From NCBI GenBank assembly GCA_031272765.1, contig JAISTD010000123.1, forward strand, positions 323 to 64,322: DNA of 64,000 nt. Reading direction: 5' to 3'. The stretch is from Candidatus Methanovirga australis (GTDB lineage: Archaea; Methanobacteriota; Methanobacteria; Methanobacteriales; Methanobacteriaceae). Every line of letters starts with the position of its first letter. Positions within the stretch are counted from its first letter, which is position 1. The position numbers and the translations under genes were made by a program. Positions 5,589 to 15,540 of the stretch are shown in pieces. The notes under the pieces were generated by a model. The model made no database searches. It saw only the letters and a list, made by a program, of their open reading frames with translations, and was not told the origin of the DNA.

Positions 5589-7202
5589 TTAAACAATTTC
5601 ATTTATATATGATTTTAGAATTGAATCTTTATTAACAATTGTAGGTAATTTTGTTGAAGTTATTGATTTACCTGGACTAACTACTTTAACAAATAAACTA
5701 TCACGATAACCTGATTTCATAATATATAACCTATTTAATTCTAATTTTAAATCGTTTTTTAAATTCTTAATTAAGTTTTCTCTAAATTCTAATTTGTTGA
5801 AATCAGCACCACTATGTTCAATAATATAAGAAACACTTTTTTTATCATCTGAAGGAATTACTTGGAAAAAACTAATAAATTCATTAGAATCTTTTTCAGT
5901 TTTTTTTATTACATGATCAAACTGATTAGCAAAAAAAGTGACATTGTTACAAACAGTGTTTTCACTTGCTTTACATTCAAATTCAATATTTGGTGTTTTA
6001 AAAGTTTCACCTTTAAACGAAACAATATCATGAAGATTATAACGATACAATCCAGAATAAGTACTTATTACTATTTCATATAATTTACTCATATCTACTT
6101 CTTCTAAGGTTACTATCTCTCCACCATCAATTGGTAAAAATTCAAAAAATGCTGAAAAAGGAGCTATTGGTCCTGCAGAAATATTTGCTTCAAAAGGCAC
6201 ATTAAATTTTCCTTCACTTGCACCATAACCCCATTCTAAAAAATTCACATCCTCACTTAAATTTCTTTTAATGTCTATTGCACATCTGCCTACACTTGAG
6301 GAAAGCCAACACCCAACAGTTTTAAAATTAGGCCAAATATCTTCAACTTTAAGCTCCCCTTTATCTAAATAAATTTCTCTAAGTTCTCTAACTCTTTCTT
6401 TAGTATCTGGAAGTTTAGATATTAATATTTCTTTTAAAGAGGAGTCAATATCTAAAGAAATAGTATGATCATCTAAATCATCAATCATTTTAGAAGTATT
6501 ATTTCTAATTTTTTTAAGTAAAAAATTAAAATGGGCTAAATTATTGCATATAACTGCAGTAAGATTTTTTGAAGCTAAAGCAAATAAAGCCATTAAATAA
6601 TCTTTATCTTCATTATAAATATCTTTTGCTTGAATTAATTCTTTAGGTAAAATGATTTTAATATTAGAATCCTCATATGTGCTAAGTCCCTGACCAGATG
6701 CTGCCATAATAGGAATTCCTCCTTCAGTAAACCCATAGTCTGAAGAATTTGTAATTCCTAAAACAGGAGGATTATTTAATAAACTTGGGCAAATCTTAGT
6801 TAATTGTATTGATCTAAGTTTCATTACAAGATTTTTAGTTAAAATTCCTCTTTCACTATCAGGGAAATATTTCATATGTCCTGTGGTTCCTGAAGAAACT
6901 ACAAAAGAATGAGTTGAACCATTGAAGAGAATATCACTTTTTCCTTTTTTCATTTTTTCAATATCATCCAAATAATCAGAATAATTGGAAATTGAAACAT
7001 TTTTTTGAAACTCTTCAATTGATTTAATTTCATCAAAAGAATGTTTAATCCCAAATTCAGAGGATTTTCCATATTTTAAAATATCAAACAAAATTTCCTT
7101 TTGAACTTTATAAGGATCTTTTAAAAATTCTTGGAATTTCCCATATAATTTTAATTCATCTAATTCATTTAATGATTCTGGAATACTTCTATTAAAACCC
7201 AT
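5589..7202 (-). CDS. GH3-family adenylate-forming acyl acid-amido synthetase homologue
   Basis: GH3 motifs are present: SSGTTGHMKYFP, GYGASEG and YRYNLHDIV. Length is 537 aa. Confidence 0.85.
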   Translation of the reverse strand: MGFNRSIPESLNELDELKLYGKFQEFLKDPYKVQKEILFDILKYGKSSEFGIKHSFDEIKSIEEFQKNVSISNYSDYLDDIEKMKKGKSDILFNGSTHSFVVSSGTTGHMKYFPDSERGILTKNLVMKLRSIQLTKICPSLLNNPPVLGITNSSDYGFTEGGIPIMAASGQGLSTYEDSNIKIILPKELIQAKDIYNEDKDYLMALFALASKNLTAVICNNLAHFNFLLKKIRNNTSKMIDDLDDHTISLDIDSSLKEILISKLPDTKERVRELREIYLDKGELKVEDIWPNFKTVGCWLSSSVGRCAIDIKRNLSEDVNFLEWGYGASEGKFNVPFEANISAGPIAPFSAFFEFLPIDGGEIVTLEEVDMSKLYEIVISTYSGLYRYNLHDIVSFKGETFKTPNIEFECKASENTVCNNVTFFANQFDHVIKKTEKDSNEFISFFQVIPSDDKKSVSYIIEHSGADFNKLEFRENLIKNLKNDLKLELNRLYIMKSGYRDSLFVKVVSPGKSITSTKLPTIVNKDSILKSYINEIV

Positions 7203-7362: not shown

Positions 7363-9066
7363 CTACTCTTCAATTAATGCAAAGAAAAATCTTCTTTGAG
7401 CTTCATTTACAATTACTCTTGGAGGTTTCAATTGATTTGAAGACACACCTTTAGTTATCATTAAATCCCTATATAATAAATAAGTTTCTTTTTGTAAAAG
7501 ATGTACTTGTGTTTTACCAAGAATATTCTTTTTAATTTTATCACCATAGGATAAATTAAGTTTAGATAATTTTTCCTCTATTGAATCACGAATATCTTCT
7601 TTAGATACTTTATCTGGATTTTCATTAATTTCTAAAAAGAAAACATAAGATGCAGGTGATGAATCATGATCAGGATACATCGAAAATTCCATTAAATCTA
7701 TATTAAATTCTTTCATAGTTCTTTGAACAGCTTCCCTTAAAGCAACTTCAGTAGTTTTCTCACCAGCCAAACTAACATTTTGACTGACCCTATATAAGAA
7801 TTGAACTAATGGCATGTCATTATAACGACCAGTTACACGAATAGCATCACCCATTTTATACCTATAAAATCCTGAAAGATTAGTGATTATTATTTCATAA
7901 ATTTCCCCATCTTCTATTTGATCAATTGTCAAATACTCTTCACCATTAATAGGTCTAAATTCAAAAAAACAAGAATCAGGTACCAACGCCGAATCGGGCG
8001 AATTAATATCAATAGGTGATGAAAAAACGCCTTCTGAAGAAGCAATTCCGTATAAAACTAAATTTAAATCTTCACCAGCATATTTTTCTTTAATTTTGTT
8101 GGTATAATTATCAAATCCTCCCGTACCAATTCCAACGAGTGCTTTCATTTTAGGCCATAATTTTGGGATAATTGGTTCACTAAAACCTTCATTAAATATT
8201 TTTGTCAATTCTTCAGCTCTCTGAGGCATTGCTTGAATTCTTGTCGATAAACTTTCCCTAACCGTACTAGACATGTTAATTTCATCATTAATTGTTCCAT
8301 TATTTATATCATCTACAAGCAATTTCCAATTTTCTTCAATATACACCAATAACTCAACAAAAGCACTGTAAAATGGTGACAAAGTATAGCTAATATCTCT
8401 ATCCATTAAAGCAAATCTTGCAATTATATATCTAACATCAGTATCTGGTTCTGGAAAAAAGGCTTCTGGTGGAGAAGTATATAATAACTGAAGTATTTTT
8501 TCATATCCCCCCAATTCTTCTCCAAGTGTTAATAATGCCTTTGTAGATATTGCTCCATAAGTTATTTTAGGTTTTATTTCTTTTAAGGAAAAATCAGCAA
8601 TATTTAATACCCTCCCATTAATCCAATCTAAACCTAATTTATCCCCCATTAAAGCCATTATATTATCTGCTCCATGTTTAAGAAATACTTCTTGACCTGG
8701 AATAGAGCAAGGTATCTTTTTAGGGTTACCTAATGTTCCAGAAGATTTAGAATAATGATCTACTTTATTAACAGTGATTAGACCATCCATATCATCGATT
8801 ATCATAGATAATATATATTCAATATAGTCATCATATTCTGTTAACGGGACCTTGGATTGATATTCTTCAATAGATTTAATATGACTAAAATCGTACTTTT
8901 GTCCATACTCAGTATTTTTATTCTCATCTAATATTTTAAATAATAATTCTTCATTATATTTAATTGGATCTTCTGTCATTTTTAAAAGATTTTCACGAAC
9001 TTCTTTACCATCCTTATATTTTTGCATGAAGACTTTTCCAGCAACGGACAAATCATTGATGTTCAT
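7363..9066 (-). CDS. GH3-family adenylate-forming acyl acid-amido synthetase homologue (divergent paralogue)
   Basis: Motifs SSGTLGNPKKIP, YGIASSEG and YRYKMGDAIRV. Length is 567 aa. An SD GGTGA precedes the ATG. Confidence 0.85.
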   Translation of the reverse strand: MNINDLSVAGKVFMQKYKDGKEVRENLLKMTEDPIKYNEELLFKILDENKNTEYGQKYDFSHIKSIEEYQSKVPLTEYDDYIEYILSMIIDDMDGLITVNKVDHYSKSSGTLGNPKKIPCSIPGQEVFLKHGADNIMALMGDKLGLDWINGRVLNIADFSLKEIKPKITYGAISTKALLTLGEELGGYEKILQLLYTSPPEAFFPEPDTDVRYIIARFALMDRDISYTLSPFYSAFVELLVYIEENWKLLVDDINNGTINDEINMSSTVRESLSTRIQAMPQRAEELTKIFNEGFSEPIIPKLWPKMKALVGIGTGGFDNYTNKIKEKYAGEDLNLVLYGIASSEGVFSSPIDINSPDSALVPDSCFFEFRPINGEEYLTIDQIEDGEIYEIIITNLSGFYRYKMGDAIRVTGRYNDMPLVQFLYRVSQNVSLAGEKTTEVALREAVQRTMKEFNIDLMEFSMYPDHDSSPASYVFFLEINENPDKVSKEDIRDSIEEKLSKLNLSYGDKIKKNILGKTQVHLLQKETYLLYRDLMITKGVSSNQLKPPRVIVNEAQRRFFFALIEE

Positions 9067-9154: not shown

Positions 9155-9451
9155 TTATTCTATAGTTAAAATGTCTGTAAATCCAGTAGCATCAAAAACC
9201 TCCATGATAAATTCATTAACATTTTTAATTACCATGGTTCCTTGTTTATTCATCAATTTTTGTGTGGAAAGAATAATTCTAAGTCCTGAACTGGAGATAT
9301 AATTTAATCCTTCAAAATCAAATATTAACTCACTTACATTTGGAAGATCATTTTTTAATGCATCATTTAACTCTGGAGAAGATTTAGTATCTAATCTACC
9401 AGAAACTTTAACCACTATCTTTTTACCTTCAACATTTTTTTCAATATCCAT
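9155..9451 (-). CDS. STAS-domain protein (SpoIIAA/RsbV-type anti-anti-sigma antagonist)
   Basis: A 98-aa single domain with GRLD and a conserved phospho-serine context, NYISSSGLRIIL. An SD AGGTG lies upstream. Confidence 0.85.
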   Translation of the reverse strand: MDIEKNVEGKKIVVKVSGRLDTKSSPELNDALKNDLPNVSELIFDFEGLNYISSSGLRIILSTQKLMNKQGTMVIKNVNEFIMEVFDATGFTDILTIE

Positions 9452-9898
9452 TAATAAACACCTACTATCAAATTATAGTCTTAGAAAAATTTTTTATAAT
9501 TTATGAGTTAATCTAAAATGTCTTATTTTATATAATTATCATTATACTCACTTAATTTTTAAAAATATATTTAAAATATTTTTATTTTTAAGAATTATTA
9601 ATTGTAATAGTTTTATTAATTAAATAAGTTATAATAACATTTCAGAAATTATTGTCACTTACAAACTTTAGTTCCAAGCCTATAAGAAAATTTTGATACA
9701 TATAATAACTATTTTATATTTCAACATTTATATATTAATGTTTTAAATAAGATATTAAAATAGTATTCAATACAATCCATGAATGATTTTATGAATTAAA
9801 GAGGAAGTGTAATACATAATTTTAATTCATTGAATAAGTATTACAAAACAGTTGACCTGATAGTAATAGAGAGAATTACAAAAATAGCTTTGTAAAGC

Positions 9899-11833
9899 TT
9901 AATTTTTCTTTCTATATTCCAAAATTAACATGGTCTCATCATCAAATTGTTCAACACCTTTAGTAAAACTATGCAGTACCTTGCTTACTTTAGGAATCAA
10001 ATCTTCAATTTTTAAGGCATGATTTTCATTTAAAACATTGGCCAATCTTTTTATTTGAAATTCTTCTTCATTTTGATTAATAGACTCTGTGATTCCATCA
10101 GTAAATAAGTATAATCTATCACCTGCATTTATTGTTATTTTAAATGATTTATACTTCATATTTTCCATTCCTCCAAGAACAAAGTCAGGTTTAGATTCTA
10201 AAATATTATATTGGTTTCTAGATTTGTTAAATAAAAATGGTTTGGGGTGACCCGCATTCACATAAGTCATTTCTCCAGAATTAATATTCAATAATCCTAA
10301 CCATACTGTAACAAACATTCCTTCATTATTGTTCTCATTAAGCTCATTATTAATCTTAATGAAAACTTCTGATGGTTTTAACCCTAATTTTAATTGATCT
10401 TTAATCAATGTTTTAACCATCATCATAAATAATGCTGCTGGAACTCCTTTACCACTCACATCACCAATAACGATAACTAAATGATTATCATCTATTAAAA
10501 AATAATCATAAAAATCTCCTCCAACATTTTTAGCAGGGATATAACTTGCAAAAATATCAAAATCATTTAACCTATTAGGAAATGGAGGAAATTCATTTGG
10601 GATTGTATCCATTTGAATTTTAGAAGCAACATTCAATTCAGCATCAATTTTTTCTTCTTTAGCTGTAATTTTCTTTAAATCAACAATATACTTCTCAATA
10701 GTTATAATCATGTTCTTAATAGATACAGATAAAAACTTTGTTTCATATTTATTAGTTGATAAATAATCTAATCTATTTAATATAGATTCAATATTATTTG
10801 GATTATTGTGTTCCTTTTGACTAAATCTATTTGTTATATATTCTATAGCAAGAGTACTAACAGATTGCAATGGTTTAGAAAAATTTTTTTCAATATAATA
10901 TAATAATAATGAGGAGAAAATTAACATTAATACCCAATTTATTACATCATACACACCAAAATAAAGCTCTATGAAGTCATGTAAGTCAAAAGTTTCTCCA
11001 AATAATATCCAATCAAACACATACCAAAAATAAGGGGTAATATTGTAAAATATAGATATTAGCAAAACAAAACATATTATAACCTCACTAAATGAAGTAT
11101 TATATTTTACCTGTTCATGGTTACCATTTGGCTTAAGAATAACAAGGAAAATTATTATAATCATGTTAAAAAGAATATATTCACAATTAATAACATATAA
11201 TTTTCCAATTAAATAATTATATAATAATTGGATTATTAGTGTTATTGAAAATAGTATGATAGCATGCCTAATTTTTTTATTATGCTTTAAAAAACTTGAT
11301 TTTTCTATTTTGTATACTTTAATATTGGTTAAATTAACTATTAAAACAAATAAGGTATTAAAAATAAAAGTCAAATTTAAAATTAGAAAATAATCTGTTA
11401 GAAAATTATTTAAATTATCAGAATTAAATATCACTTCAGGATCAAATAAATAATAACTACAAATATATAAGTATAGAAAAAAAGCATTACCTATTATATT
11501 TACTAAAATAAATTTAATCAAATTACTCGTGTCATTCAAATGTAATGTTGGAACTTTATTATCAAAATTAAAAGCATAAAATAATTTAAAAACAAAATAA
11601 CTTAGACTAACTATAACTAAACTATTGAATAAATAGAAAAAACTTAATTGTGATAAATTATTAGAGTAATTCAATATAAAATGAACTACCATATATCCAG
11701 ATCCTAATCCTAAACACCCCCATTTTCCATATAATAACGGAAATATAGATATTAAAATCACAGCAGGATTAATATGAACTTCAAAATATGAAAATTGATT
11801 AAAAAATGCATAAACTATTGAATAAATTATCAA
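9899..11833 (-). CDS. polytopic membrane protein with a C-terminal PP2C/SpoIIE-type serine phosphatase domain
   Basis: About 330 aa of hydrophobic N-terminal segments precede the PP2C motifs GGDFYDYF, GDVSGKGVPAALFM, TDGITE and DDETMLILE. The first in-frame start is TTG, so the N-terminus is uncertain. Confidence 0.85.
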   Translation of the reverse strand: MIIYSIVYAFFNQFSYFEVHINPAVILISIFPLLYGKWGCLGLGSGYMVVHFILNYSNNLSQLSFFYLFNSLVIVSLSYFVFKLFYAFNFDNKVPTLHLNDTSNLIKFILVNIIGNAFFLYLYICSYYLFDPEVIFNSDNLNNFLTDYFLILNLTFIFNTLFVLIVNLTNIKVYKIEKSSFLKHNKKIRHAIILFSITLIIQLLYNYLIGKLYVINCEYILFNMIIIIFLVILKPNGNHEQVKYNTSFSEVIICFVLLISIFYNITPYFWYVFDWILFGETFDLHDFIELYFGVYDVINWVLMLIFSSLLLYYIEKNFSKPLQSVSTLAIEYITNRFSQKEHNNPNNIESILNRLDYLSTNKYETKFLSVSIKNMIITIEKYIVDLKKITAKEEKIDAELNVASKIQMDTIPNEFPPFPNRLNDFDIFASYIPAKNVGGDFYDYFLIDDNHLVIVIGDVSGKGVPAALFMMMVKTLIKDQLKLGLKPSEVFIKINNELNENNNEGMFVTVWLGLLNINSGEMTYVNAGHPKPFLFNKSRNQYNILESKPDFVLGGMENMKYKSFKITINAGDRLYLFTDGITESINQNEEEFQIKRLANVLNENHALKIEDLIPKVSKVLHSFTKGVEQFDDETMLILEYRKKN

Positions 11834-11945
11834 ACTGATTAAAAAATTTTTTAATCCCTGTTTAACTTCCCCGTTTATTTAAATTCCCCCTTCATTTACT
11901 ATCCAATAACACGGTTTCAATATTTTAAAAGACTATGCTAATGAC

Positions 11946-12083
11946 CAATGTCATCAACTTAACGATTTTTACTTAAATTGGGTTTTATATTTTTCATGGT
12001 TTTAAATAAATTGCAAATTTTTTTATATAAATTTGTCTATTTCACGAAAATATTTAACCAGATCTCTTAAGTTGATGACATTG
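11946..12083. mobile_element. MITE family C (138 bp) with a perfect 17-bp TIR and a 10-bp TSD
   Basis: CAATGTCATCAACTTAA (11946-11962) is the exact reverse complement of TTAAGTTGATGACATTG (12067-12083). It is flanked by the direct repeat TGCTAATGAC at 11936-11945 and 12084-12093. Confidence 0.75.
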
Positions 12084-12222
12084 TGCTAATGACTGTTTTC
12101 ACATTATACTAATTATTTAATAATTATGAATTATTTCATATCAACAAATCATTTTTAAATTTAATTTAAAAAATATTATCAACTCTCATAAGTCTATAAA
12201 TTAACAAAATTTACCAACAGGA

Positions 12223-12639
12223 CTAAAAATCCAATATTTTCTCAATAGTTAAAATATTTTGATTATCCTTAAATTCATAATCAATATTATTAATATTTTT
12301 CTTAACAAGAAAAATTCCTAATCCACCAATATCTCTATCATTAGCATTTAAAGTTGTGTCAGGATCCTTATGTTTTAATGGATTAAATTGAGTTCCTTTA
12401 TCGATGATTTTAATAACAATTCTTGAAGGATTATCTTTAAAATTATATATTATTTCTATTTTATTATCATCACTTCCTATTTCATAGGAATAATTAATAA
12501 TATTTGTAAAAATCTCTTCTAAAGCTATTTCAAGCCCTAACTTAAATTTTTCAGACACAGATTTAGAATCTAAATAATCTCTAATAATTTCTAAAACATT
12601 ATCTAACTCGTTTATATCTGCCTTTACAGTAACATTCAT
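12223..12639 (-). CDS. RsbW/SpoIIAB-type serine kinase (anti-sigma-factor-like GHKL ATPase)
   Basis: 138 aa with an N-box LEEIFTNIINYSY, a G1 box IDKGTQFNP and a G2 box GGLGIFLVKK. An SD GGTG sits 7 nt upstream of the ATG. Confidence 0.85.
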   Translation of the reverse strand: MNVTVKADINELDNVLEIIRDYLDSKSVSEKFKLGLEIALEEIFTNIINYSYEIGSDDNKIEIIYNFKDNPSRIVIKIIDKGTQFNPLKHKDPDTTLNANDRDIGGLGIFLVKKNINNIDYEFKDNQNILTIEKILDF

Positions 12640-12650
12640 TTAAACACCTA

Positions 12651-12664
12651 TCATATAACTATTG
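12651..12664. promoter_or_regulatory. perfect 14-bp palindrome ATTGTCATGACAAT just upstream of the kinase start (candidate operator)
   Basis: Read directly from the sequence. It is self-complementary and lies 12-25 nt upstream of the ATG at 12639, immediately 5' of the SD. Confidence 0.3.
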
Positions 12665-13133
12665 TCATGACAATTTGATTCTTTCTATTTTAGTATTGAT
12701 TTTATTATTGATAATTTTTCATTAGAATAGTATTAAATGAAATTTCAACGGAGGATAATCCTTTGATTTCCTGAAAACTCATTTTTAAAATTTTACTAAA
12801 TTATTTTGTCTTGACACTATTTTATTCATGTAATATAGTACTTGACATGATTTTTTAAGTAATGGACTTTTTAAATAGATATAATATTATTTTATTTTAA
12901 GTTTTATTTATTGAATAGTATATTTTTTGATATAATTATTTTGAATTATTTATAATGAAATAATCTATGTTTAAATGATATTTTCAAACAGAGAATAAAT
13001 TCTTCTAAGTTAAAAATAAATTTTTAACAATAGAAAACTCATTAATTAAATTATTAATATCAAGGACTATAATTATCAAAAATTATTGTATTGCAACAAC
13101 CTCATGGAACTACAATTTTTTCCACCATTTTTT

Positions 13134-14834
13134 TTACAATACTATTGTTAAATTATTTAATCCAATTGTGTTTCTATAATCTATGTCTTTAGCTATTTTT
13201 CGAATTATAGAAATCCCAAGTTTATTTTTTGAAGGGCTGTTTTCATTACCATATTCTATTGGGTTAAATGGTTTACCATCATCCCGAATTCTGAAAATAA
13301 CCCCATTTTTAGTTAAAAGAATCCTAATATCTATGTAGTGCTGTTTAGATGATAGGAAACCATGTTCTACAATATTTCCTGCCATTTCTTCTACACATAA
13401 TGCGATTTTTTTAAGTTTGTCTTCACAATGAGGATACTTATCAATGAATGAATAAATCTTATTAGACAGTTCCATAACTTGCTCCATATCATTTTCTATC
13501 GAAATTTCAAAACTATCTTTAATATTTTCCTCAAAACTATCCTCCAACATTAGAAAATCATTAACTTTTCTAGGCCATATTCCAGTTTTAATTCTTATTA
13601 AAATAATAAGACCAACCAAAGTAAAAGTTTCCCCTAAAAAGAAACAAATCCAAAGCCCGTCAGATCCCATTATTGGTGTTAAAACAGTGGCAAATAAAGA
13701 TATTAATAAAAAACTATGTGCAAAACCTATATAATTCGCCATATAAGTATTATTTATAGAACTATAAAAATTTAAGAATATAACTCCAATTAATGAAGGA
13801 GGTAATGATAATGCAAATAATTGAAGGGAAAATGTTGCCGTGGGAAGAACCTCAGGGTTTTTACCAAAAAGACCAACTAAAAATGAGGAAAATATTATGA
13901 CAAGTAATGAAAGAGGAACTATAATATACAAACCCCATTTAATTGATATTTTCAAAAGATCAGATAGTGAACGTCTATCTTCTTCACCATAAAAAATCCC
14001 ACCAAGTAACATTGTTGTCATTCCAACCCCCATAGCTACTGCACTTAATAATTGATTTATATTTGATTGAATAGTCAAAGCACCCATCACTATTACTCCA
14101 CCAACCCATAATGCAATATGATTAGTAACAATTGTTCTTGCCATTGTGAAAATTCTATTTAATGCTGTTGGCAGTCCTATTCTAATAATTTCAATAGCTT
14201 CTCTGAAATTATGTATTTTAGATAAATGTAATGTATTTTTTTTAGTAAAAAAATGAGAACATAACACTAACACACCCAAAGTATAACTAATTGATGTTGC
14301 AATACCAATACCAAACATTCCTAAGTGGAATACAGTGACAAATAGAATATCTAAAGTTATATTAAAAATAGTTGAAATTGTGATTGAAAGCAATCCTAAG
14401 TTAGGATTATTATCTAATCTAGTATATGAAAATAATACTTGAGATAAAATTAAAGAAGATGTTCCTAATATCAATCCAAACATAAAATCAGAAGCCAATG
14501 GTGTTAAAGCCCCAGTAGCACCTAAAAGAACAGATAGATAATCTACATAAAAAGGAGAAAATGCAGTTATTATTATTGAAGTTATAAGCCCAATTAAACA
14601 AGTCATAGTAAAACTATCATTAACTTTTCCTCTTTCTTCTCGCCCAATATAATTAGAAGATAATATTGTACCTCCATTTCCAAAAACTGTTGCAAAAGCC
14701 ATTATCAAAATAAAAATAGGAGAAACTATACCATAAGCAACCATGCCTTCATTTCCCATGAAATTGCCGACAATCAAACCGTCAATCACCATTCCTAAAG
14801 TAGCATTAATTAGTCCTATTATTGAAACAAACAA
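13134..14834 (-). CDS. MATE-family efflux transporter fused to a C-terminal RsbW-type GHKL kinase domain
   Basis: About 420 aa of MATE-like 12-TM region precede a roughly 130-aa domain with an N-box CVEEMAGNIVEHGF, a G1 box RDDGKPFNP and a G2-like KLGISIIRKIA. There is no canonical start at the expected N-terminus; TTG at 14834 is the first candidate. Confidence 0.85.
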   Translation of the reverse strand: MFVSIIGLINATLGMVIDGLIVGNFMGNEGMVAYGIVSPIFILIMAFATVFGNGGTILSSNYIGREERGKVNDSFTMTCLIGLITSIIITAFSPFYVDYLSVLLGATGALTPLASDFMFGLILGTSSLILSQVLFSYTRLDNNPNLGLLSITISTIFNITLDILFVTVFHLGMFGIGIATSISYTLGVLVLCSHFFTKKNTLHLSKIHNFREAIEIIRIGLPTALNRIFTMARTIVTNHIALWVGGVIVMGALTIQSNINQLLSAVAMGVGMTTMLLGGIFYGEEDRRSLSDLLKISIKWGLYIIVPLSLLVIIFSSFLVGLFGKNPEVLPTATFSLQLFALSLPPSLIGVIFLNFYSSINNTYMANYIGFAHSFLLISLFATVLTPIMGSDGLWICFFLGETFTLVGLIILIRIKTGIWPRKVNDFLMLEDSFEENIKDSFEISIENDMEQVMELSNKIYSFIDKYPHCEDKLKKIALCVEEMAGNIVEHGFLSSKQHYIDIRILLTKNGVIFRIRDDGKPFNPIEYGNENSPSKNKLGISIIRKIAKDIDYRNTIGLNNLTIVL

Positions 14835-15540
14835 GTATGATTTAAAAGATTTTAAAATTAAATAATTATTCGTTAGTGTATTCTTAATTATAACACATCC
14901 TATTTAAATAATAAAGTTATCATTGCAAACTCAATAGTATTGCATTGACACTTATTTAAATTAAAATATTGAACAATTTAATTACATATGGATATAATTA
15001 TATTAAAATTATTACAAAAACATCACATAATAGCTAACAAATTTATACATCCCCCAAGTATGTGAACATGATTTTATTTGTATTCTTAATTAAATATATG
15101 TTTTGTGATTTAACCAATGCTGTTAACTTAATGTTTATATAGTAAATTGTTCATATCTATTATTAGTATTATGTTTTATTTAGACAAATATGTGTAGTTG
15201 CATTATCATTAATTGTAATAAGATCTTAAAAGAGTTTTTTGAGTTAATAACTTCGGATGAATTTCTAAAAATGAGCAAAATAAATTTTGAATCATTTATA
15301 CACAATATATTTAAAAACCTAAAGTTTGATAACAATTTAAATTATAATGACTTTTTATAAAGTCTTATTTTTTTAATTTATTTTGAAGTTTAACTCTTTT
15401 TTTAGAATAATTTTAATTCTGCACTTAAACAAACTTGTTCTAATAGAACTTCCTCTTTTCCTTCTTTTAAGAATTTTATAATCCAGTTTAATTCCGTTGA
15501 CTTTTTTAAACTGATTTAATTCCTTAATTTTATTTTAATT

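Follow-up and report, generated by a model that had tools for sequence, protein, structure and literature searches.

MATE pumps are regarded as constitutively active and as regulated by transcription. The characterised pumps terminate soon after transmembrane (TM) helix 12, and we know of no characterised member with a fused GHKL domain. Here we analyse such a fusion, which is encoded in a 64,000-nucleotide stretch of DNA from the archaeon Candidatus Methanovirga australis (GenBank assembly GCA_031272765.1, contig JAISTD010000123.1, positions 323 to 64,322, forward strand). This whole stretch is called the window throughout. The gene, which we name MATE-K, codes for a MATE transporter core followed by a domain with the predicted fold of the anti-sigma kinases SpoIIAB and RsbW.

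Several described systems can be compared with this locus. SLC26/SulP anion transporters carry a STAS domain on their cytoplasmic C-terminus (PMC8256260). Like these proteins, MATE-K is a secondary transporter that has one half of a STAS/anti-sigma-kinase pair at its C-terminus. The polarity is, however, reversed: MATE-K carries the kinase-like half, whereas its STAS protein is free, and the transporter belongs to another superfamily. Partner switches with an output other than a sigma factor are also described. Among them are SypE-SypA from Vibrio fischeri, with bifunctional SypE-type proteins (PMC10120452), SiaABCD from Pseudomonas aeruginosa (PMC7647112) and the HenR/STAS-glycosyltransferase system from Anabaena (PMC13555669). 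The MATE-K cassette resembles these in having a PP2C phosphatase and a HATPase_c_2 kinase that would set the phospho-switch of a STAS protein, and the TM-SpoIIE-HATPase_c_2 proteins of related loci appear similarly bifunctional. It differs in its presumed effector, a transporter with its own anti-sigma-like receiver domain, and further in holding a GH3 or APH enzyme and in occurring in archaea.

A description of a MatE plus HATPase_c_2 fusion, or of the cassette, was not found in the literature, where searches for "GH3" were swamped by papers on glycoside hydrolases. The MATE-K architecture and its conserved cassette are apparently undescribed.

The fusion gene and its spread

An earlier note on this DNA, made from the sequence alone, described a single open reading frame (ORF) of 566 aa with neither a stop nor a frameshift between the two parts. 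This is borne out: the 566 codons form one uninterrupted frame, and they are collinear and gapless in the species of the window and three others. In a Pfam scan, MatE (two stretches) and HATPase_c_2 are both found in this one ORF. In species-representative genomes, at least 456 loci have the MATE-K architecture, and they are concentrated in animal, rumen and termite gut microbiota. A full-length search found MatE plus HATPase_c_2 in about 48 clusters, with identities down to 25%. The profile of the C-terminal domain (C-domain) alone retrieved 268 clusters (at 50% identity) with E <=1e-30, and the C-domain sits at the extreme C-terminus in all of the best 150 of these 268. Full-length members in the profile search have 574-611 aa, with the C-domain at about residues 450-590. 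A word-indexed search with the same profile returned mostly short fragments.

Among the matches listed, the nearest genome is the termite-gut metagenome-assembled genome (MAG) of Candidatus Methanovirga procula (99% identity), followed by Ca. M. aequatorialis (95%) and by Methanobrevibacter cuticularis and M. curvatus (both 86%). The fusion is also found in cultured isolates, namely M. cuticularis DSM 11139, M. curvatus DSM 11111, Methanobrevibacter sp. DSM 116169 and Sporofaciens sp. In the four-species comparison over 566 codons, the ratio of nonsynonymous to synonymous substitution rates (dN/dS) is 0.16-0.28 for the MATE core and 0.09-0.33 for the C-domain, and both halves are under purifying selection.

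Such a gene might in principle be a pseudogene in decay, or the product of misassembly or of a join by frameshift. A conserved N-terminal peptide without a standard start codon ahead of it (see below) would fit this view, but it is explained by a conserved Shine-Dalgarno-like sequence followed by ATA-ATT. The architecture recurs in hundreds of independent assemblies, including those of cultured isolates. Together with the gapless collinearity and the low dN/dS in both halves, this rules out an assembly or frameshift artefact, and we consider this explanation to be effectively refuted, with a negligible residual chance. The MATE-K fusion is real and conserved.

In the databases, members of the family are named only "MATE family efflux transporter", "ATP-binding protein" or "MepA". 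NCBIfam contains no model specific to the MatE plus HATPase_c_2 fusion. Three longer relatives, P0011 (757 aa), P0166 (754 aa) and P0176 (786 aa), have two to three stretches that match the C-domain profile; these may be MATE pumps with tandem anti-sigma-like domains. P0151 (217 aa, encoded on a contig of 21.8 kb), which is related to the fused-type C-domain, carries the annotation PF13193, the AMP-binding C-terminal domain. This may be a further link of the fused-type C-domain to adenylate-forming enzymes.

The start codon of MATE-K

The gene call begins at a TTG codon. The N-termini of the homologues begin with MKN(K/T)LTN.YLI.K.FKSY, and the DNA ahead of the called TTG encodes this conserved peptide (KNTLTNNYLILKSFKSY) in the same frame (window 14835..14906, minus strand). 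Between an in-frame TAA (14904..14906) and the called TTG there is no ATG, GTG or TTG in frame. A Shine-Dalgarno-like sequence, AGGATGTG, is located at 14894..14901, ahead of the codons ATA-ATT; its counterpart in the related locus L001 is AGGAGGTG. M. cuticularis has an in-frame GTG in place of the window's ATT, and the homologues P0004 and P0005 have 584 aa. Because the conserved in-frame peptide lacks ATG, GTG and TTG and lies behind a Shine-Dalgarno-like motif, the annotated TTG is probably wrong. The true start would then be a noncanonical ATT at 14888, which adds 18 codons and results in a protein of 584 aa. Residue numbers given here refer to the called ORF.

The MATE core

A MATE-type 12-TM core reaching to about residue 420 had been proposed, and Pfam, the structure model and the closest structural matches agree on it. 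MatE (PF01554) matches MATE-K with 1e-30 and 107 bits (cut-off 24.9), while the NCBIfam model TIGR00797 (matE) stays below its cut-off (128.8 versus 147.4). The AlphaFold2 (AF2) model of the whole chain has a predicted local distance difference test score (pLDDT) of 86.7 and a predicted TM-score (pTM) of 0.85. Its core has the two-lobe 12-TM fold, for which Foldseek returns PfMATE, DinF-BH, VcmN and NorM at target TM-scores of 0.77-0.84 (PfMATE, 6hfb: 0.83). By profile search, the nearest solved protein is DinF-BH (5c6o, 7.6e-64), followed by PfMATE (1.6e-55).

The core shares with DinF-BH and PfMATE the aspartate in TM1 and the N...D pair in TM5 in addition to the fold. Asp D18 in TM1 is found in at least 90% of the family sequences, and the family motif VDG aligns to VVD40TIF of DinF-BH (5c6o). 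The TM5 pair N158/D162 is likewise found in at least 90% of the sequences. D40 of DinF-BH and D41 of PfMATE are the residues which, from published MATE structures, we take to be the cation-coupling aspartate. Because D18 and N158/D162 are kept and DinF-BH and PfMATE are the nearest solved proteins, the core looks like that of a working proton-coupled exporter of the DinF type. It is the GHKL domain fused after TM12 that sets MATE-K apart from both proteins.

The C-terminal domain

A short conserved linker connects TM12 to the C-domain; its pLDDT in the whole-chain model is 80-84. The earlier claim that the cytoplasmic domain has a GHKL/anti-sigma kinase fold agrees with all three types of comparison made. 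HATPase_c_2 (PF13581) matches residues 447-564 (2.4e-14, 53.8 bits, cut-off 27.4). Profile searches of the PDB return RsbW (2.1e-5) and SpoIIAB (6e-5), while a single-sequence search of the PDB is marginal (E 0.035). The AF2 model of residues 432-566 has a pLDDT of 88.4, and its best Foldseek match is 1th8_A, which is SpoIIAB complexed with SpoIIAA (E 2.3e-8, TM-score 0.73). The top 14 matches are all SpoIIAB, UsfX (Mycobacterium tuberculosis) or RsbW (Bacillus subtilis), with 6m36 among the matches, and the best ones in the PDB are the STAS-bound forms of SpoIIAB and RsbW. As modelled, the C-domain has the Bergerat (GHKL) fold of SpoIIAB/RsbW. The equivalog models for these proteins score far below their cut-offs (spIIAB 20 versus 135; RsbW 19 versus 145).

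All three GHKL boxes had been reported for this domain, and the corresponding strings (EEMAGNIVEHG, DDGKPFNP and KLGISIIRK) are indeed present. Two of them are intact: in alignments of 32 and of 26 family members, the N box residues E483 and N487 and the G1 residue D518 are invariant. The third is degenerate, as its GxG is missing. In GHKL kinases, the G2 glycine loop binds the ATP phosphates. Across 80 related loci, GxG is missing from 78 of the 82 MATE-fused domains. By contrast, IGGLGI is retained, behind a long lid (DPDxTLSAEER), by 30 of the 34 HATPase_c_2 domains that occur free or joined to PP2C in these loci. The profile alignments of the C-domain to RsbW and SpoIIAB stop short of G2, and lid residues 532-534 are the only low-confidence part of the AF2 model (pLDDT <50). 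Because the N box and G1 are invariant while the GxG is lost in nearly all members, the fused domains form a distinct subfamily that keeps the nucleotide-site residues and has lost the phosphate-binding glycine loop. Two other invariant residues, Y553 and N560, map to the final two strands, at a distance from the ATP site.

With SpoIIAB and RsbW, the C-domain shares the fold, the ExxxN of the N box, the DxG..F of G1 and a length of about 130 aa. The MATE-K gene is likewise linked to a STAS protein with a phospho-serine motif and to a PP2C phosphatase. The C-domain differs from SpoIIAB and RsbW in being covalently attached to the C-terminus of a 12-TM transporter and in lacking the G2 GxG loop, with a separate canonical kinase in the same cassette. 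It also resides in an archaeal host, which has no sigma factor to sequester, and no sigma-like gene was seen in the cassette. MATE-K should not be filed as an anti-sigma factor, because G2 is lost and a sigma-factor target is lacking. Its fused domain may, however, work like the STAS-binding half of one.

The cassette in the window

Five further genes are located downstream of MATE-K in the direction of transcription, on the same strand (Table 1). With STAS, SpoIIE-type PP2C and RsbW-like kinase genes in addition to the fused domain, the set of partner-switch components is complete in the window. The free-standing STAS gene, which had been noticed 3.7 kb downstream, is confirmed as an anti-sigma antagonist type with a serine motif (ISSSGL); its score for TIGR00377 is 67 bits (cut-off 53). 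The N-terminal polytopic domain of the PP2C protein (window 10544..11833, minus strand) has no Pfam match but is conserved in 20 related loci. In other lineages, it is replaced by 5TMR-LYT plus HAMP (L037 12008..14821). Because the N-terminal membrane domain is conserved and is swapped for 5TMR-LYT plus HAMP elsewhere, we suggest that the phosphatase is the signal-sensing input.

M. cuticularis (L003) and M. curvatus (L004) likewise have two GH3 genes in tandem. Among bacterial GH3 proteins, OlsH (lyso-ornithine lipid synthetase) is the only characterised one that we found (PMC12493201). The two GH3 genes were considered as OlsH candidates and rejected, with 75 and 53 bits versus an NCBIfam cut-off of 620. 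A lipid-flippase reading of the MATE core finds no support in the sequences beyond these sub-cut-off matches.

The six genes stay together in M. curvatus, but their order there (STAS-GH3-GH3-MATE-K-RsbW-PP2C) is cyclically permuted relative to the window. The window has about 27% G+C. Upstream of MATE-K, the same contig codes for the archaeal ribosomal proteins L12, P0, L1 and L11, followed by Spt5 and an archaeal GAPDH; the window is archaeal. The ~1.1 kb between MATE-K and the ribosomal L12 gene (14907..16000) has no ORF of at least 60 aa. Across the whole 64-kb window, searches for tRNAs and Rfam families gave no match, and the cassette and its surroundings have no meaningful repeat.

Table 1. 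Features of MATE-K, of its cassette and of related loci. Coordinates are those of the window unless a locus is named.
Feature	Coordinates	Strand	Description
MATE-K gene	13134..14888	-	called ORF 13134..14834, TTG start, 566 aa; probable ATT start at 14888, 584 aa
MATE core, DinF/PfMATE subfamily	13575..14834	-	residues ~1-420, 12 TM helices; AF2, Foldseek, profile
Conserved linker from TM12 to C-domain	13524..13583	-	residues 418-437; consensus K.G..P....D.LLL...F
C-terminal SpoIIAB/RsbW-like GHKL domain	13137..13523	-	residues 438-566; Pfam, profile, AF2 and Foldseek
N box, E482-E483-M-A-G-N487	13374..13391	-	invariant in family; aligns to SpoIIAB S-E-A-V-T-N
G1 box, D518-D-G-K-P-F-N-P	13260..13283	-	D518 and F523 invariant; aligns to SpoIIAB RDEG
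Degenerate G2 (SKNKLGISI)	13203..13229	-	single Gly (G540) kept, no GxG
Free RsbW-like Ser kinase, canonical	12223..12639	-	138 aa; HATPase_c_2 5.5e-19; intact G2 (DIGGLGIF)
Membrane PP2C phosphatase	9899..11833	-	N-terminal polytopic domain of ~430 aa; SpoIIE at residues 448-640, 3.5e-47
STAS protein, single-domain, anti-sigma-antagonist type	9155..9451	-	98 aa; STAS 7.9e-15; phosphorylatable-Ser motif YISSSGL
GH3-family acyl-acid amido synthetase	7363..9066	-	567 aa; GH3 N/M/C 6.7e-64, 2.2e-19, 3.9e-22
Second GH3 paralogue, divergent	5589..7202	-	537 aa; GH3 profile 7e-133; directly after first GH3
AT-rich ORF-free spacers	9452..9898, 11834..12222, 12640..13133		same genes overlap or abut in most related loci
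STAS-APH fusions adjoining MATE-K	L027 1263..2726; L046 8733..9929; L054 2008..3186; L059 446..1666; L060 15383..17023		domains in either order

The neighbourhood in related loci

Neighbours were counted among the six-frame ORFs of the 80 related loci, which were searched with the window's proteins. A STAS gene is present in 41 of the 80 loci, on the same strand as MATE-K in 38 of these 41; the distance is at most 300 bp in 24 loci and at most 3 kb in 35. In at least 20 loci from various lineages, the STAS gene overlaps MATE-K by 4 bp or is within 50 bp of it. PP2C is found in 30 loci. GH3 is found in 25, each time co-oriented with MATE-K and no more than 3 kb away. Where both flanks of MATE-K extend for at least 5 kb (39 flank-controlled loci), the counts are 24 for STAS, 20 for PP2C and 17 for GH3. 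Iterated STAS, PP2C and GH3 profiles did not give additional matches in the related loci. GH3 - STAS - MATE-K - (TM-SpoIIE-HATPase_c_2) recurs as a tight operon (e.g., L025 7938..13551). In about 28 of the 30 PP2C-bearing loci, the PP2C has a canonical kinase either next to it or fused to it. Of the 45 linked STAS domains, 43 carry the motif Y[IV]SSAGL, among them domains from loci without a nearby PP2C.

All-against-all clustering of the neighbouring ORFs, with antisense shadow ORFs removed by overlap filtering, revealed an APH-like partner. A gene for an APH-family phosphotransferase directly abuts MATE-K in 24 loci. Seven further loci have a STAS-APH fusion as the neighbour of MATE-K, and in one of them it is STAS-APH-HATPase_c_2. 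To our knowledge, the STAS-APH architecture has not been described before. GH3 and APH are both present in just three loci. As judged from these neighbourhoods, the conserved core consists of MATE-K and a GH3 or APH-like enzyme, usually with STAS and often with the PP2C/kinase pair. Four loci without STAS, PP2C, GH3 and APH (L058, L063, L065 and L078) have a recurrent gene near MATE-K that, by eye, resembles D-2-hydroxyacid dehydrogenases.

Proposed mechanism and alternatives

We know of no sigma factors in archaea. A switch in this organism would therefore lack a transcriptional target, which makes the transporter its likeliest and most economical output. In the model that we propose, and to which we give an even chance, MATE-K is a proton-coupled exporter of the DinF type, and its GHKL C-domain is the transporter-borne partner in a phosphorylation-controlled partner switch. 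The membrane PP2C phosphatase and the RsbW-like kinase would set the phospho-state of the STAS serine, as their architecture suggests. STAS would dock onto the MATE-fused domain in one of its phospho-forms, the unphosphorylated one by analogy. Docking could alter transport allosterically through the short conserved linker, or it could bring the co-encoded enzyme to the pump. For the window, this would be GH3; for other lineages, it would be an APH-like enzyme, in some cases fused to STAS. In this way, a small molecule would be exported on demand after its conjugation or phosphorylation. The fused domain itself is probably not the main STAS kinase, because its G2 motif is lost and a kinase with an intact G2 travels with PP2C in the cassette.

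The earlier note had pictured a MATE transporter that carries the STAS-binding partner and is gated directly by the switch. The linkage to STAS, with its close spacing and shared strand, and the SpoIIAB/RsbW fold support the first part of this picture. It is incomplete in that it took no account of the lost G2, of the separate canonical kinase with its PP2C and of the GH3 or APH-like enzyme. The presence of this enzyme points to an enzyme-exporter coupling rather than to the simple gating of a multidrug pump, and its recruitment is an attractive possibility given the STAS-APH fusions. It is tempting to speculate that the cassette is a widespread and so far undescribed modify-and-export module of gut anaerobes, in which the switch docks the ATP-dependent GH3 or APH-like enzyme on the MATE transporter via STAS and a kinase-incompetent fused domain. 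We propose this specific version tentatively and with some doubt. A functional pairing of MATE and GH3 is known from salicylate biosynthesis in Arabidopsis, where the exporter EDS5 (MATE) is paired with the amido synthetase PBS3 (GH3), which makes conjugates of the acid that EDS5 transports (10.1101/600692, PMC11416591). We draw on this case only as an analogy, with nothing to show a shared substrate or ancestry; moreover, the plant genes are unlinked, their products are in separate compartments and they lack partner-switch domains.

Several observations weigh against the proposed model. AT-rich ORF-free spacers of 390-490 bp lie between the genes of the window's cassette, which are not translationally coupled. 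STAS, PP2C and GH3 are all missing nearby in 9 of the 39 flank-controlled loci, so linked switch genes are not a prerequisite for the fused domain. With an invariant catalytic-base Glu (E483) and an invariant Mg-binding Asn (N487), the fused domain could be an active kinase instead of a passive dock. Finally, the taxon labels of several MAG loci are doubtful. Three loci labelled Acutalibacteraceae, Eggerthellaceae and Faecalibacterium (L028, L030 and L034) have a mutual DNA identity of 81-86% over 9-13 kb and are ~80% identical to Methanomassiliicoccales loci (L025, L026) from the same kind of study, which is either mis-binning or very recent transfer. The spread over Firmicutes, Methanobacteriales and Methanomassiliicoccales, however, rests on the isolates and on the archaeal context of the window.

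If the fused domain were an active Ser kinase acting on STAS, the roles would be exchanged. The MATE core would be a sensor, and the transporter would be the input of the switch and not its output. Occupancy by the substrate, or its transport, would alter the kinase activity, and STAS/STAS-P would in turn act on another target, for instance the free RsbW-like protein or an enzyme (GH3 or APH). The invariance of E483, N487 and D518, all of catalytic type, is in line with this. So are 13 loci where STAS adjoins MATE-K and keeps its phospho-serine motif while PP2C and a canonical kinase are missing from the available flanks. The conserved, rigid-looking linker and the whole-chain pTM would permit coupling in either direction. 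However, the G2 loop that the fused domains have lost is kept in the co-encoded partner kinase, that second, canonical kinase would be redundant, and the MATE core retains the proton-coupling Asp network expected of a working exporter. We regard a sensor role of the transporter as unlikely.

The domain might also act independently of STAS, either as a sensor of ATP/ADP (energy charge) or as a dimerisation module of the pump. Linkage to STAS and PP2C would then reflect a shared regulation of the GH3 or APH pathway without physical interaction. Conserved nucleotide-binding residues combined with a lost G2 would suit such a role, as would the invariant Y553 and N560 away from the ATP site and the flank-controlled loci devoid of any switch gene. 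SpoIIAB and RsbW are obligate dimers, and PDB entries 1th8 and 6m36 are among the matches of the C-domain. Yet STAS genes overlap or closely adjoin MATE-K in various lineages, and STAS-APH fusions abut it, and such a pattern would be expected if the partners interact physically. Moreover, the nearest structures are specifically those of STAS-binding anti-sigma kinases and not those of other GHKL proteins. A function without STAS is, in our view, quite improbable.

Implications

The conservation of the fusion and of its cassette in many gut anaerobes suggests an undescribed way to switch a transporter on or off. If this is correct, a switch receiver that is built into the pump would add a new, fast and post-translational level to the control of efflux. 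Partner switching would be extended beyond sigma factors to transport, and into archaea. Should the modify-and-export version apply, it would be the first case of partner switching that directly controls a transporter, and it would for the first time explain in functional terms why archaea, which are sigma-less, have partner-switch proteins. So far uncharacterised prokaryotic GH3 and APH-like enzymes from gut Firmicutes and methanogens would gain a testable role, the making of a conjugate that is then exported. Candidates for such conjugates are detoxified plant acids or a signalling molecule. As the family is large and concentrated in the gut, this biology could be ecologically relevant.

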